DNA of 64,000 bases from an uncultured Phycisphaeraceae bacterium (GTDB taxonomy: Bacteria; Planctomycetota; Phycisphaerae; Phycisphaerales; Phycisphaeraceae). The stretch's first letter is position 1; each line of letters begins with the position of its first letter. The translations under genes were made by a program, and so were the position numbers. This document shows positions 44,835 through 59,385 of the stretch, in pieces. The stretch is from assembly GCA_964426135.1 (NCBI GenBank), contig CAYRPN010000018.1, positions 65 through 64,064 of the forward strand, read 5' to 3'. The notes beneath the pieces were generated by a model. The model was not told where the DNA came from. It did no database searches and saw nothing but the letters and a program-made list of their open reading frames with translations.

Positions 44835-47800
44835 TCATTCCCCCGCCGCCACTGTCTTGCCGTCGGGCTTGGGCGGAGGCGGCGGCGTGAGCAACTGCAT
44901 GGGCGGCAGCGTGCCGATGTGGTAGTTGTGGCACTTGAGGCAACTGTCGCCGGCGAGCTGCGGCTTGTGACAGGTGATGCAGGTTTCCTTGTTCACCGCG
45001 GTGAAGCCCGCAAGCTCAGCCGGGAAATCAAACGGATCGAGCGAGGCGAACTTGGCCTTCAGGTCGGTCTTGGCGGGCTTGTGGCAGACCTGGCAGTTCT
45101 TCAGTTCGGGCAGGCTCAGGTGGGGCCGGTGCGAGAACTTGACGAACGGACGCTCCTGAATCTCCGGCCGCTTGGCCTGCCAGTTGATGAGCAGACCGCT
45201 GGCGACGGAAGGCGCGGCGGCCTCCGCGTCGGGCGCTTTGGCGGCGGCCTTGGCGGCGACGAGCGATTCGAGCTTGGCGGCGGTCTGCTCGATGCTGTGG
45301 CACTTGACGCAGCCGGCGGCGACGTCGGCGGTCATGCTGCTGAAGAACGCGCGGGCCGGCGAAATCGGCCCGGCATCCACCGGCGCTGGCGGCGTGGCCA
45401 GGGCGCTGGCGCTGAGCCAGGACTTGAGGAAGATGTTGCCGTGGCCCATCGCCCGGTAGCGCAGGCCGAAGCTCGACTCATCCAGGTACCAGCCGCCGGT
45501 GGCGACGCGCTCCTCAGGCGAAAGCGCGACTTCCTTCGCCGGCGGCGGCGCGGTCTTGGGCGTGGTGGCGGGCTTCTTGGTGTCGCCGTCATCTTCGAAC
45601 AGATCGCCGCCGGGCTTCTTGGGAGTGGCGGGCTTTTTCGGTTCGTCGTCGTCGAAGAGATCGCCGCCTTTCTTGGCGTCCTTCGCAGGCGCGGCCTTGT
45701 CCTTGGCGGGAGCGGGGGCGGGTTTCTTCGGTTCGTCGTCGAGGTCGAAGAGATCGCCGCCCTTCTTGGCGTCCTTCGCAGGCGCGGCCTTGTCCTTGGC
45801 GGGAGCGGGCGTGGCGGGTTTCTTCGGTTCGTCGTCGTTGAAGAGATCGTCGGCCTTCTTGGCCTGCAGGGCGAGACGGTCGGCGGGCTCGTCGTTCGTC
45901 CAGACGCCTGCGGCGTTTCCGCTAACCGGCTTGACCGGCGATGCAGGCTTGTCCGCGAAGACGCCTGCGGCGTTTCCGCTAAACGGCTTGACCGGCGACG
46001 CAGGCTTGTCCGTGAAGACGCCTGCGGCGTTTCCGCTAAGCGCGGCGCTGACCTTGGCGGACGAGGCATGGAACTGTCCGACCCAGGCGCGAATCGCGCC
46101 GCGCGGCGAAGCGCCGGCCACGGTGGTGCGCACCTCGTCATCGGCTTCGTCGCGATCCGGGCGTTCGTGGCGCCAGCCGCCGCGGCGGTTGTCCGTTTCG
46201 TCGAGCGGCTCGTACTTGATCTTGCCGAACTCCAGGTCCGACTTCTTGTTCATCAAGTCCCGCACGCGAATGACGGCGATGTGCTCGATGGTGGCCCGCC
46301 ATTGTCCGCTGACGGCGACGGTGACGCGCGACTTGACGCCGGTGCGGATTTCCGCGTCGCCCGGCAGTTCATCGCCGGCCCGCGCCACCTGCCAGGGGCG
46401 AGTCGCGCCGCCGACACGGACCTGTACCAGGCCGCGCACCGCCACGACACGCGCCACCGCCAGCGGCGGCGCCGGATCTTTGGCGACATCCAGAATCTCC
46501 GACGAAGGCTTGGGCGTCACCGGTGTCGGTGTCGGCGTGGGCGTCGGCGTGGGAGTAGGTGTCGGAGTCGGCGTCGGCGTGGGAGTTGGTGTCGGGGTAG
46601 GCGTCGGCGTCGGGGTTGGCGTGGGAGTGGGTGTTGGGGTCGGGGTCGGGGTCGGGGTCGGGGTCGGAGTCGGAGTGGGCGTGGGCGTCGGCGGCTTGGG
46701 CTTGACGGGGTCAGGCAACGTCGGGATCACCGGGTCGGGCGTCACCGGATCGATCGGCGACGGCAGCTTGGTGGTTGGGTCAGGCCGGGTCGGATCGGGC
46801 CGGGGCTTGGTGGCGGTGGGGTCGCCGGTCGTCGGCGTGGTCGTGGGCCGCGCCGGGTCGGAGGTCGTGGGCGAGGGCGGCACCACGGGCTTCGATTCAG
46901 GAATCAACGAAGGCAGCGGCGCCTTGGGCAGATGAAGCTTGTCGTCGACCAGGTCTTCGCTCAGGTCGGCTGATCCCAGCGGCACGCGCGAGCTGGGCAC
47001 CAGTTCCGCCCGCGGCGTGACGGTCGGGCCCACGGCCAGCACCTGGGGCGCGGCCGTGGTCTTGATCGCACTGGGCTTGGCGTCGTCGAACAGGTCGTCG
47101 TTCTTGGGCTTGGGCTTGGGCGGCGTGGGCTTGGGCGGTTCGTCGTCGCCGAAGAGATCATCCGCCGGCTTGGGTTTGGGCGGCGTGGGCGTGGCGGGAT
47201 CGGGGGTCGGCGGCGTCGGCGGCGCGACGCGGATCGGACGGTCGGGGATGTCCTGCATTCGCCCCGCCCGATAGAGCGGAATCGTGTCCAGAAGATCGGG
47301 GAACCACTGCGATCGCGCCGACACGATCACATCCACCGGGAACTGCGCGGAAAGCTCCGCCAGTTCGGCGTCGCTGATCTTGCGGCCCAGCGCGTTGCCG
47401 AGGCGCTGCCGCAGCGCTTCTTGCCCCTTGAGCGACAAATCGTGGACCAGTTCCTTCACCGCCCAGCCGATTTTCACCACCGCCTGCTTCTGTTCCTTGG
47501 TCGCCTTGGTCAGGTCGTTGAGCTTGAAGTTGGCGGGCAGGCTTGCGATGGCGGCGGCGGCGGCGGGGTCGCTGGAGAGAATCAGGCTCATGAACGGCGA
47601 GAGCTTGCCGTCGATGTCGTAATCGGCGCCGCGGGGCCAGGAGCCGATCCAATCACCGCCGTCGGCCGCGAACTCTTTGAGCAGATCCATGTCCAGGCCC
47701 GGCAGATGGAAGACGAGCAGGCCCTTGCCGCCGGACTGCATCGCCTGCCCGTGGCAACTGGCGCAGGATTCCTCGAAGGGCCTGGTGGCCATGTGGCGTT

Positions 47801-57357: not shown

Positions 57358-59385
57358 TCACTTCACTTCGAACTCGACCGTGTACGGATGGATGTCGATC
57401 ATCCACTCGTTCATTGCCTGTTCCATTTCCTTCGTCGCGCCGACGAACTTCATGAAGTAGATCGGCTCCGCCCGGCTTCGCAGCCGGACCGCCAGCCTGT
57501 ACACGCCAGGCTTCGTCAGCAGCTTGCCCGGCACCGAGTAATTCGCTTTCCGCGTCCCCAGCGGGGGAATCGAACGAGCCTCCATGCGAACCGTCGGCGG
57601 GTGGTTGATCACTGTCGTCGGCGTGCCCGCCGGCCGCAGGAACGGAATCTGGTCCGCGTCCACGTTCACGGGCAGGTACATTTCGCGGTCGGTGCCCTTG
57701 ACGTTCGTCGTGAGGAACTTCGACTGCAGATTCACCAGTTGATCGTCGTGGGCCAGCTTGCCCGCGCGGACATCGAACGAGTGCAGGTCCGCCATGTCGC
57801 CGTGGCTGTCCACGTAACCCGTTTCCCAGATGTTCTTGCCTTCGGGATCGATCAGGGCGACGTTCAGCCAGATTTCAGGCTGGGCGCCCAGCGAACCGGA
57901 GGGCAGGTTGTGGCCCGGGTCCGTGTTCGTGATCTTGTACTGGAAGCTCAGGCCGCGGCCGAGCGCCGGCTTGCTGTCGAAGAACGGGCCATCGATGCGC
58001 GAGCCGTTCTCCATGACCGCCAGGCGATCCTTCTTTTTCTTTTCCAGGAGCTTGATGTTCTCATCGAGGATCGCGCGGGCGTCTTCGCGGTCGAACGAAT
58101 CCTTCCAGTCATCGGGGAACGCAACCTTCAGCGTGCCCTTGTCCACTTTCTCTTCAAACTCCGGCGTTCCCCAGCCCGCGCGGAAATCGAAGCGGAGCCA
58201 CTGCTCCATGGTCCACTTTTCCGCCTTGGGGTTGTGCGGGAAAATGCCGGGGTGGGCAATCGGGTAGCCGGGGCCGTAGAAGGAGTGGTTCGCGTGCTTG
58301 CGCTTGGCGGTGGGCTTGCCGCCGACGACCGCCGCCGGAGCCTCGGCATAACCGGCGGGCACGCCGGGGGTGTGGCCCATGTGGCAGTCCTGACACTGGA
58401 TGCCCTGTTTCTTGGCGGGCGATGCGCGGTACTGATCCCATACCACTTCGAGCTTGATGCCGATGTTCACCGCGACCTGGTGGCAGGAGACGCAGAACTC
58501 GCTCTTGTCCAGTTGCTCGAACTTGATGGCCTGGGCGTGGACCTTGATGCCGGGGCCGGTCTTGTCGCCCTTGGGGTCCAGCGTGGTGATGTTCTTGATC
58601 GCTTCCTGCAGGCCGGCGCCGTCGCTGGTGCCGAGCACCGCCGCGTGGATGTTGCCCACTTCGATCCGGCGTTCGCCGTTGACCTTGGCGTACTGCGACT
58701 CGACGCGGTGGCAGGTGATGCAGGTGATGCCCTCGCGCGACACCTTGGTGCGCTTCCACAGGGGCAGATCGCGCTCTTCCTTCAAGGCTGTGCCGACGCT
58801 GGCGTGACACCGCATGCAGAAGTAACCGATCGTGCCCTGCGCCAGGTCGTTGATCTTCTGCTCGAACTTATGAAACATCGGAGAGATGGAGGCGTAGGCA
58901 TGGTTGCTGACGCGCCACTCATCGTAAATCTGCTGATGGCAGGCGGCACACTTGCTGGCGCTGGGGTAATTGTCTTCCGCATAGAGAGCCGTGTGCGGAT
59001 CGCCTTCCACAGCCGGCGTCACCTTGCTGCCGTCGGGCAGCGTGGTGGGCTGTGCCTTGGGCGGCGCGGGCTTGGGCGGGTTCTTCGCGTCATCCTCGTC
59101 ATCGAGGAGCGCGCCGGGCTTGGGCTTGGCGGGCGTGGCGGGTGTGGCGGGCGTCACCGGCTTGGCGGGGACATCCTCGTCATCGAGCAGGCCGCCCTTG
59201 GCCTCGGGCTTCTTGGGCTCGGGGGCCTTGGGTGCTGCCGGCGTGGCGGGCTTCTTGGGCACGTCCTCGTCGTCGAGCAGGCCGCCCTTGGGCTTCTCCT
59301 GCGCGAACGCCAGGCCGCCGGCGAAGAGCGCGGCGATGGCCGCGATGCTGAGGCAGTACCGGAAAAACGAAGTGCGGGTGCTCAT
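57358..59385 (-). CDS. Secreted pentahaem c-type cytochrome with N-terminal Pro/Lys + acidic repeats and a ~300-aa non-haem C-terminal domain
   Basis: ATG start and signal peptide. Three GG(L)LDDEDVP.KP-type repeats are present, with five CxxCH (CAACH, CMRCH, CITCH, CVSCH, CQDCH). Confidence 0.8.
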   Translation of the reverse strand: MSTRTSFFRYCLSIAAIAALFAGGLAFAQEKPKGGLLDDEDVPKKPATPAAPKAPEPKKPEAKGGLLDDEDVPAKPVTPATPATPAKPKPGALLDDEDDAKNPPKPAPPKAQPTTLPDGSKVTPAVEGDPHTALYAEDNYPSASKCAACHQQIYDEWRVSNHAYASISPMFHKFEQKINDLAQGTIGYFCMRCHASVGTALKEERDLPLWKRTKVSREGITCITCHRVESQYAKVNGERRIEVGNIHAAVLGTSDGAGLQEAIKNITTLDPKGDKTGPGIKVHAQAIKFEQLDKSEFCVSCHQVAVNIGIKLEVVWDQYRASPAKKQGIQCQDCHMGHTPGVPAGYAEAPAAVVGGKPTAKRKHANHSFYGPGYPIAHPGIFPHNPKAEKWTMEQWLRFDFRAGWGTPEFEEKVDKGTLKVAFPDDWKDSFDREDARAILDENIKLLEKKKKDRLAVMENGSRIDGPFFDSKPALGRGLSFQYKITNTDPGHNLPSGSLGAQPEIWLNVALIDPEGKNIWETGYVDSHGDMADLHSFDVRAGKLAHDDQLVNLQSKFLTTNVKGTDREMYLPVNVDADQIPFLRPAGTPTTVINHPPTVRMEARSIPPLGTRKANYSVPGKLLTKPGVYRLAVRLRSRAEPIYFMKFVGATKEMEQAMNEWMIDIHPYTVEFEVK

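Follow-up and report, generated by a model that had tools for sequence, protein, structure and literature searches.

What do seven co-oriented genes for multihaem cytochromes, iron-sulfur proteins, a flavoprotein and a putative outer-membrane barrel do together in the DNA of an uncultured Phycisphaeraceae bacterium? They occupy positions 44835-59385 of a 64,000-nucleotide stretch (contig CAYRPN010000018.1 of assembly GCA_964426135.1, positions 65 to 64,064), which we call the window, and a preliminary description had read them as a candidate trans-envelope electron-transfer system of unrecognised architecture. Translation gives seven long open reading frames (ORFs) and two short ones in this interval, all on the minus strand. 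Judged by the genes described and their order, and by orthology to marine alpha- and gammaproteobacterial loci, the cluster is a Phycisphaerae-type copy of the published operon ptdABCDEFG. The architecture has therefore been recognised before: every gene has its counterpart there, and the order, from 57358-59385 down to 44835-48788, is exactly A to G. As to its function, we lean, by a modest preponderance, towards a regulated chain resembling the NADPH oxidases (NOX), which would take electrons from NAD(P)H in the cytoplasm out to periplasm and outer membrane and bypass the quinone pool.

The preprint that names the operon (bioRxiv 10.1101/2023.11.21.568154, v2, February 2024) describes PtdA as a pentahaem cytochrome carrying a beta-sandwich at its C-terminus, PtdB as a porin, PtdC as a flavin adenine dinucleotide (FAD)/NAD(P) oxidoreductase, PtdD as a tetrahaem cytochrome, PtdE as a protein that binds cyclic nucleotide monophosphates (cNMP) and carries 4Fe-4S, PtdF as a ferric-reductase-like membrane protein and PtdG as a decahaem cytochrome, and reports ptdA and ptdB transcripts in oxygen-deficient-zone Alphaproteobacteria. 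Its authors propose a porin-cytochrome complex or a role in the nitrogen cycle, while stating that the function of ptd “remains completely unknown”; our own searches of the literature for functional studies of ptd, or for the cluster under another name, returned no further paper. The carriers listed there, said to come from marine or high-salinity settings, include Nitrospina, Nitrospirales, cultured strains (among them Roseibium aggregatum, Tistlia consotensis and Abyssibacter profundi) and three metagenome-assembled genomes (MAGs) of Planctomycetota. On the contigs of these three MAGs the protein accessions run consecutively from A to G, so they lack the two extra genes of the window, which is therefore a further member.

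All seven described members are found in the window, and translation together with Pfam and NCBIfam searches bears out the cofactor motifs that the preliminary description had assigned to them, including the haem counts of 10, 4 and 5, which agree with the numbers of CXXCH motifs. ptdA (57358-59385) encodes a secreted pentahaem cytochrome of 675 residues with a Sec signal and five CXXCH motifs, and is followed by ptdB (55636-57216), for a predicted outer-membrane beta-barrel of 526 residues ending in YRFKF. Next come ptdC (54083-55396), for a membrane-anchored NAD(P)H flavoprotein with a C-terminal plant-type [2Fe-2S] domain; ptdD (52888-53892), for a periplasmic tetrahaem cytochrome of 334 residues with a Sec signal; ptdE (50949-52724), for a cytoplasmic protein with two cNMP-binding domains and a DmsB/NrfC-type domain for four [4Fe-4S] clusters; ptdF (48785-49609), for a candidate dihaem cytochrome b with five transmembrane (TM) helices; and ptdG (44835-48788), for a membrane-anchored decahaem cytochrome of 1317 residues with ten CXXCH motifs.

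We scanned one genome per GTDB species and found relatives of PtdB in at least 553 genomes of about eight phyla, the carriers belonging to Phycisphaerae, Planctomycetia, Alpha-, Beta- and Gammaproteobacteria, Verrucomicrobiota, Acidobacteriota, Myxococcota and others. PtdB has more than 2114 homologues, 48-62% identical and all unnamed, and PtdA more than 3496, about 59-72% identical across phyla among those aligned. MAGs from groundwater, deep Lake Baikal and soil are also among the PtdB carriers (loci L015, L018, L032, L035, L058, L060, L063, L070, and L072), and the published saline-habitat scope is therefore too narrow. BLASTP retrieves orthologues of all seven window proteins in the gammaproteobacterial locus L004 and the marine alphaproteobacterial locus L006, with the haem counts of 5, 4, and 10 kept. 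Identities to L004 and L006, respectively, are 67% and 56-71% for PtdA (56-71% over L004, L006, and the Phycisphaeraceae MAG L008), 55% and 55% for PtdB, 51% and 50% for PtdC (50-67% over these three loci), 45% and 46% for PtdE, 36% and 31% for PtdF, 33% and 32% for PtdD, and 30-31% and 27-31% for PtdG. The same neighbours stand together on the contigs of L004, of the marine alphaproteobacterium (L006/L007), and of L008.

Synteny was counted over 80 loci that we kept, many of them on truncated contigs. The ptdA gene lies immediately upstream of ptdB in 74 of the 80, all seven families are found in 30 and five or more in 42, and the loci show four different gene orders: D-E-F-G-A-B-C in most Proteobacteria, whose ptd genes are contiguous and often overlap; A-B-C-D-E-F-G in Phycisphaerae and one Verrucomicrobiota locus; a divergent GFED/ABC arrangement in Opitutae and one Acidobacteriota locus; and a shuffled order in Chthoniobacterales. 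A clustering that returns with the same genes in phylum after phylum goes far beyond what chance would give, and because co-occurrence persists across different gene orders, it points to functional coupling and not to inherited adjacency. On this comparative evidence the seven genes form a single conserved functional unit, with parts in the cytoplasm, at the inner membrane, in the periplasm, and at the outer membrane, and the preliminary description, which had the set spanning every cell compartment and looked to synteny across genomes, is strongly upheld here.

The unit has a core and variable additions. In some loci (L056, L017, and L058), each flanked by 7-10 kb on either side, tblastn finds ptdA-ptdB alone, and the solitary pair of L056 is confirmed by ORF calls and Pfam; ptdA and ptdB are therefore the core. 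A gammaproteobacterial variant, consisting of L084 and about 13 similar loci (among them L032, L036, L043, L046, L050, L051, L071, L082, and L089), lacks PtdC and combines A and B with a 438-residue tetrahaem protein, a 272-residue membrane protein, a shorter decahaem protein, a second tetrahaem protein, and an 812-residue fusion. In L084 this fusion (16300-18738) joins a Pyr_redox_2/3 flavoprotein to two cNMP domains and a 4Fe-4S domain, so that, given the linkage of PtdC with PtdE elsewhere, two unrelated NAD(P)H flavoproteins have become attached to the same Fe-S module. The variant decahaem protein carries an N-terminal FHA domain in some loci (e.g., L050, L071, L088, and L089), FHA-domain proteins are encoded directly after ptdC in 13 beta- and gammaproteobacterial loci, and in L062 an FHA domain is fused to PtdC itself. 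In addition, class III adenylate/guanylate cyclases with a CHASE2 sensor lie beside ptd in seven loci of three phyla, Alphaproteobacteria, Acidobacteriota, and Phycisphaerales (L018, L030, L056, L059, L066, L068, and L085; e.g., L085 17488-19791). A search of the window found none of the cyclase, FHA, or TolC-like genes that accompany ptd elsewhere.

The two short ORFs of the window lie outside the ptd set, between ptdE and ptdF, and probably form a restriction-modification (R-M) cassette. One encodes an N4/N6 DNA methyltransferase (50121-50945, minus strand; Pfam PF01555, E 2.4e-33) and the other a PvuII-like restriction endonuclease candidate of 163 residues (49661-50152, minus strand), for which precomputed annotation gives a weak PF09225 match and our own Pfam scan of the 176-residue ORF none. 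The G+C content is 0.53-0.55 over methylase and endonuclease, against 0.62-0.70 on the flanks. In the relative L090, whose PtdB and PtdF are 92-94% identical to those of the window, the gap between ptdE and ptdF is 198 bp long and holds no cassette. Homology between the two sequences ends at the ptdE stop codon (50951) and restarts at the ptdF ATG (49609), so that a cassette of 1341 bp (49610-50950), oriented like the operon and with its methylase starting 3 nucleotides past the ptdE stop, takes the exact place of the spacer. Homology to a relative also fixes the start of ptdF at this ATG, as previously annotated, and not at the TTG at 49612. The arrangement is common to four independent assemblies and is therefore no assembly artefact. 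To judge from composition and from the comparison with L090, the cassette is a recent, strain-level insertion of foreign origin, as the preliminary description had said of its origin. L092, a related Phycisphaerae operon, has an IS200-type Y1 transposase between ptdB and ptdC (4473-4925) and a bAvd/23S-IVP-like gene between ptdE and ptdF (9556-9939); on the strength of these inserts and of the window cassette, the long spacers in the planctomycete operon evidently serve as landing sites. L092 also has a multicopper oxidase and a TolC-like gene downstream of the operon, and the ptdE-ptdF spacer of L090 contains GAGGAGTGAG-type repeats.

We turn to the parts in the order in which electrons would meet them. 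PtdC matches FAD_binding_6 (PF00970), NAD_binding_1 (PF00175), and Fer2 (PF00111, E 1.2e-9) in Pfam, its best NCBIfam match being the reductase half of flavohaemoprotein Hmp (NF009805, 268 bits). Of 51 homologues, 50 have an N-terminal TM helix with basic residues after it and the remaining one has an FHA domain in its place, in agreement with the earlier reading of PtdC as a TM-anchored FNR-type flavoprotein with a 2Fe-2S domain. Reductases of the FNR family with a Fer2 domain pass single electrons from NAD(P)H to partners, and normally run outward from NAD(P)H. PtdE has two cNMP_binding domains (PF00027), the first of which retains the FGE...R phosphate-binding cassette, and a DmsB-type Fer4_11 domain (PF13247), by both Pfam and NCBIfam; it has no signal peptide. 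All 16 cysteines, in four CX2CX2-4CX3C groups, are conserved in 36 homologues, and PtdE therefore has four clusters, as had been proposed. We find no molybdopterin or NrfD-type partner for PtdE either in the window cluster or in the 80 loci.

PtdF, with five predicted TM helices, carries H76 and H90 on TM3 and H249 and H263 on TM5, the members of each pair 14 residues apart; these four histidines are invariant in 49 homologues, as are N56, R58, and K59, and the five-TM protein with two His-14-His helices of the preliminary description is thus borne out. A helical insert of ~115 residues (residues ~125-240) is predicted to lie on the cytoplasmic side. Among the 49 homologues, 33 match DUF4405, 19 Ni_hydr_CYTB, and 4 Ferric_reduct (PF01794, at E>=0.018), all weakly, and searches of the PDB with the single sequence and with a profile gave nothing meaningful. 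The ptdF stop overlaps the ptdG start by 4 nucleotides.

PtdG begins with a cytoplasmic 8-Cys domain (residues 1-98; 48495-48788) with the motif 'YERPN..CGR..W.KPC..GP...G.C.G..EC.P...GDRW.C.R....GG.C..GP.PDG.C....PPC.P'; basic residues and a TM helix (residues ~99-119) come next. The arrangement is kept across phyla, so that the decahaem protein is membrane-anchored as had been suggested. The domain has no Pfam match; it occurs in 640 representative clusters, is N-terminal in all of the 150 best matches, mostly in proteins of 600-1100 residues, and is replaced by an FHA domain in a variant clade. The preprint makes no mention of this domain, which may hold a metal or an Fe-S cluster. The haems fall into two blocks, one of six CXXCH motifs (residues 147-346; 47751-48350) and a c7-like one of four (residues 1160-1287; 44928-45311), the latter matching PF14522 (E 4.4e-14, residues 1216-1288). 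Between them lies a lineage-specific insert of ~675 residues (residues ~420-1095; 45504-47531), containing (TP)x29, tandem 19- and 31-residue repeats with an acidic motif, and a possibly folded segment at residues ~780-900. Proteobacterial PtdG has a short linker at this place: the orthologues in L004 and L006 have about 610 residues and ten CXXCH motifs and align at residues 7-421 and 1098-1290 only. The length of the insert varies, with relatives of 813, 870, and 1277 residues. The FecR-like segment that the preliminary description had placed in the decahaem protein finds no Pfam match even at E<=1 and is withdrawn. The 13-letter acidic motif of the insert resembles 'GGLLDDEDVPxKP', present three times in the low-complexity N-terminus of PtdA (residues ~36-100; 59086-59280), and the Pro/Thr/Lys-rich inserts of the two proteins may bridge a wide planctomycete periplasm as spacers, or may share a binding motif. 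PtdD, finally, has a c554-like N-terminal half and a helical C-terminal half, matches cytochrome c554 in the PDB (1BVB, E 2e-7), and has orthologues that likewise carry four CXXCH motifs.

The outer-membrane pair combines a cytochrome of recognisable ancestry with a predicted channel. PtdA has a five-CXXCH domain at residues 146-335, part of the protein being c554-like in Pfam and NCBIfam, and a conserved C-terminal beta-sandwich domain (residues ~400-675) that AlphaFold2 models with confidence and that has no Pfam or NCBIfam match. Profile comparison of the haem domain retrieves c552 of T. tepidum (5ZE8) over all five motifs, at E 3.5e-10 to 4.4e-10. Published work describes c552 as a low-potential cytochrome linked to sulfur metabolism, and assigns it to the same family as Geobacter ExtKL, since renamed MccSep, which reduces polysulfide in the periplasm and whose haem 2 is His/Cys-ligated and lies against a C-terminal immunoglobulin (Ig)-like domain that supplies a selenocysteine. 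PtdA shares with c552 and MccSep (5ZE8, 9WT8) the five-CXXCH arrangement and a C-terminal Ig-like/beta-sandwich domain, which in PtdA is much larger, with a 'GHNLPSGSLGAQPE' loop and three histidines that are invariant. The cysteine of c552 in 'GVPLCQ' aligns to an invariant 'GIKLEV' of PtdA (K311 and E313, with E313 at the position of the cysteine). PtdB, in turn, has no Pfam, NCBIfam, or PDB sequence match. Its AlphaFold2 model, built from 62 sequences with a mean predicted local distance difference test score of 82.8, shows a disordered N-terminus, a conserved but less confident pre-barrel segment of ~75 residues (62-137), and a C-terminal part of 19-20 beta segments beginning at residue 138 (~18-20 strands), so that the earlier call of a barrel, made from the YRFKF ending, is supported by prediction. 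In a Foldseek search all of the model's 50 best PDB matches, with E from 2e-10 to 2e-7 and TM-scores on the target of 0.5-0.66, belong to porins or channels of 16-18 strands, the top folds being the 18-strand, substrate-specific channels OccK/OprD, AlgE, Campylobacter MOMP, Wzi, and chitoporin.

From gene content, motifs, conservation, synteny, and fold classes we infer an order of carriers, a direction of flow, a gate, and a terminal chemistry. NAD(P)H would reduce the FAD of membrane-anchored PtdC, which would pass electrons to its own [2Fe-2S] cluster and on through the four [4Fe-4S] clusters of cytoplasmic PtdE, where the two cNMP domains would gate the flow. In the manner of NADPH oxidases and ferric reductases, two bis-His b haems in PtdF would then take the electrons across the inner membrane. 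PtdG, whose translation would be coupled to that of PtdF, would receive them on its ten c haems, and from there they would move through soluble tetrahaem PtdD to pentahaem PtdA, partnered with the outer-membrane channel PtdB. We favour an outward direction because electrons leaving NAD(P)H, at about -320 mV, would run energetically downhill with the membrane potential assisting them, while both factors would oppose inward flow; input from NAD(P)H is supported by the L084 fusion of another NAD(P)H flavoprotein to the cNMP and 4Fe-4S module. Such a path would dissipate both reducing power and membrane potential, and a need to switch it on and off would make sense of the conserved cNMP domains, the FHA fusions, and the neighbouring cyclases. 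At the outer end, PtdA is more likely a periplasmic terminal reductase of the c552/MccSep family, served by a PtdB that admits or releases a small substrate or docks PtdA at its mouth; the enzyme-like conservation of PtdA, its ancestry, and the stand-alone A-B pairs speak for this view. A haem wire threaded through the barrel as in MtrAB is less likely, the modelled size and fold class of PtdB arguing against a sheath of that type. Taken further, ptd might stand for a class of trans-envelope reductase not characterised before, regulated and fuelled by NAD(P)H: a “split NOX” with Fe-S and multihaem relays, a catalytic PtdA with a non-Cys active site (invariant GIKLE and GHNLPSG), a dedicated 18-strand PtdB channel, and cNMP/FHA switching; we put this stronger proposal forward tentatively, and would sooner doubt than assert it.

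Several observations weigh against the NOX-like chain or its parts. The window PtdF has no Pfam or NCBIfam match, the matches of its homologues to cytochrome b families are individually weak, and characterised relatives in DUF4405 and Ni_hydr_CYTB usually bind quinones, so that a quinone link is possible. Unlike MccSep, mature PtdA has no cysteine outside its haem motifs and no selenocysteine, and its haem domain has five invariant non-motif histidines (H131, H162, H283, H367, and H378), with which all five haems could be bis-His ligated and PtdA a pure electron carrier. The AlphaFold2 model of this haem domain is poor, and Foldseek with the whole PtdA model returns generic beta-sandwich matches only, at weak E-values, because the domain models poorly without its haems. 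Lastly, the ptd genes of the window are separated by spacers of 141-239 bp, which bears on their co-transcription, and a scan for promoters and terminators found sites no commoner than in shuffled sequence and is uninformative on that point. Such spacers, the R-M cassette inside the set, and the lack of detectable operon signals are what a coincidental adjacency of independent genes would draw on. We give that explanation a negligible chance, as the seven families stand together in many phyla and in several arrangements, the proteobacterial genes are contiguous, and the cassette is a recent strain-level insertion; chance adjacency is refuted by the synteny data. The quinone link could be stronger than a detail, with ptd a quinone-linked redox module in which PtdC and PtdE serve chiefly to sense redox state or cNMP, or else give NAD(P)H another way to reduce quinone. 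Beyond the PtdF matches to families with quinone-binding members, PtdE has a DmsB/NrfC/HmcB/DsrO-like Fe-S domain, which is similar to subunits of complexes that interact with quinones. PtdE, however, has neither a Tat signal nor an NrfD-like partner and is joined to cytoplasmic cNMP domains, two unrelated NAD(P)H flavoproteins have been recruited to its Fe-S module, by linkage in one case and fusion in the other, and the near-constant anchor of PtdC fits a fixed complex, all of which makes a quinone-linked module improbable in our estimate.

The outer end of the operon invites a different reading, a porin-cytochrome conduit of the Mtr/Pcc kind in which PtdB sheathes PtdA or part of PtdG and the cell respires extracellular Fe(III)/Mn(IV), electrodes, or partner cells. 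The preliminary description likened the cluster to such conduits and the ptd authors favoured the reading, and a parts list of 19 c-type haems with a barrel, the tight linkage of ptdA to ptdB, a pre-barrel segment of PtdB that could contact a cytochrome, and a weak similarity of the cytochromes to domains II/IV of MtrC/MtrF (sub-threshold PF22113 matches only) are all consistent with it. We nevertheless consider such a conduit rather unlikely. The barrel was predicted as the preliminary description had it, but its fold class leans towards one too narrow for a cytochrome: MtrB has 26 strands against the modelled ~18-20 and is not among the 50 best fold matches of PtdB, which are channels. The ptd subunits score 20-34 bits with the MtrA/DmsE model TIGR03508 against a cutoff of 192, which none of them reaches; no lipobox is found on PtdA, PtdD, or PtdG, the PtdA signal being an ordinary Sec one, and a lipoprotein surface cytochrome is thus missing. 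The input, moreover, is an NAD(P)H flavoprotein and not a quinol dehydrogenase, so that the path would not conserve energy, and the carriers include many aerobes and nitrite oxidisers of oxic water columns, lakes, groundwater, and soil. A further reading is inward flow, by which PtdA and PtdB would oxidise an external or periplasmic donor and PtdC would make NAD(P)H for lithoautotrophy. The lithotroph lineages Nitrospina, Nitrospirales, Nitrosomonadales, and Thiotrichaceae are among the carriers, and the low potential and sulfur-metabolism link of c552 would suit a donor side. Flow in this direction would run uphill in potential and against the membrane potential with no proton-coupling subunit, most carriers are heterotrophs, and reductases like PtdC normally run the other way; inward uptake is very unlikely on this balance, and flow to NAD(P)+ was rejected on energetic grounds. 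The NOX-like chain, running outward from NAD(P)H to a periplasmic reductase, remains the reading we favour.

Ptd is among the most widespread multihaem gene clusters without an assigned function, its barrel and pentahaem cytochrome being 48-72% identical across the sampled phyla. If it exports electrons from NAD(P)H to an acceptor in the periplasm or outside the cell, it would have a bearing on how iron, iodine, nitrogen, or sulfur is redox-cycled in the sea and on the way aerobes dispose of reducing power. If the fuller proposal is also true, ptd would be a widespread and unrecognised means by which mostly aerobic aquatic and soil bacteria, of at least 553 species, spend reducing power on an external or periplasmic oxidant, for example ligand-bound Fe(III), iodate, reactive oxygen or nitrogen species, or sulfur species. 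Beyond the system as named, we add the channel-type barrel, the c552/MccSep ancestry of PtdA, the four clusters of PtdE, the four invariant histidines of PtdF, the cytoplasmic 8-Cys domain of PtdG, the flavoprotein fusions, the cyclase and FHA linkage, and the occurrence in non-saline settings.

Around and within the operon the window holds further features. Divergent from ptdA lies a 460-residue lipoprotein-like ORF (59907-61289, plus strand) with the lipobox AGGC and no Pfam match; a counterpart 50% identical to it occupies the same place by ptdA in the Phycisphaeraceae locus L008 and was not found in the other loci. Just downstream of ptdG are a CBM_4_9 carbohydrate-binding protein (43341-44474, minus strand) and a 193-residue fragment of an IS1595/ISXO2-type transposase (42530-43111, minus strand). 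Two heptamers are repeated in tandem, TGAGTTC five times in the ptdC-ptdD spacer (53916-53976) and CCGTCAG four times upstream of ptdC (55497-55524). Farther away, a 1105-residue protein consisting mostly of WD40 repeats (4099-7416, minus strand) has housekeeping genes for neighbours (class I tRNA synthetase, phosphoenolpyruvate carboxykinase, and succinate dehydrogenase flavoprotein).

As the preliminary description held, the cluster does not map onto any characterised respiratory complex, and its likenesses to known systems are partial. Tmc, Hmc, and DsrMKJOP likewise link periplasmic multihaem c cytochromes, a membrane cytochrome b, and an Fe-S protein across the inner membrane, and PtdE matches the DsrO and HmcB models weakly, with all scores far below the cutoffs; ptd lacks their CCG-domain, NrfD-like, and HdrD-like subunits, and its cytoplasmic partner is NAD(P)H. 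With the four-cluster ferredoxin subunits DmsB and NrfC, PtdE shares the 16 cysteines in four groups, without their molybdopterin or NrfD partner. MtrCAB, PioAB, and Pcc likewise have multihaem c cytochromes encoded beside an outer-membrane barrel, a plausible route to the surface, and differ from ptd in their barrel, in their MtrA/DmsE decahaem and surface lipoprotein cytochromes, and in their source of electrons. The NOX, FRE, and STEAP proteins and MsrQ-Fre would share the path that we propose here, from NAD(P)H to flavin to two TM b haems on His pairs to an acceptor on the outer face, a path that is dissipative and tightly regulated, as proposed for ptd. In contrast to the NOX family, ptd places its reductase and haem domains on separate proteins with [2Fe-2S] and four [4Fe-4S] clusters between them, PtdF has five TM helices and not six, with few Ferric_reduct matches among its homologues, and the acceptor would be a chain of cytochromes c instead of O2 or Fe(III) directly. 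Compared with the ptd operon as published, the window copy adds the R-M cassette between ptdE and ptdF and the ~675-residue Pro/Thr-rich insert of PtdG, and, besides the habitat range, we revise the description at two points, PtdE having four clusters where the paper gives two and PtdG, there called periplasmic, being membrane-anchored with a cytoplasmic 8-Cys domain.

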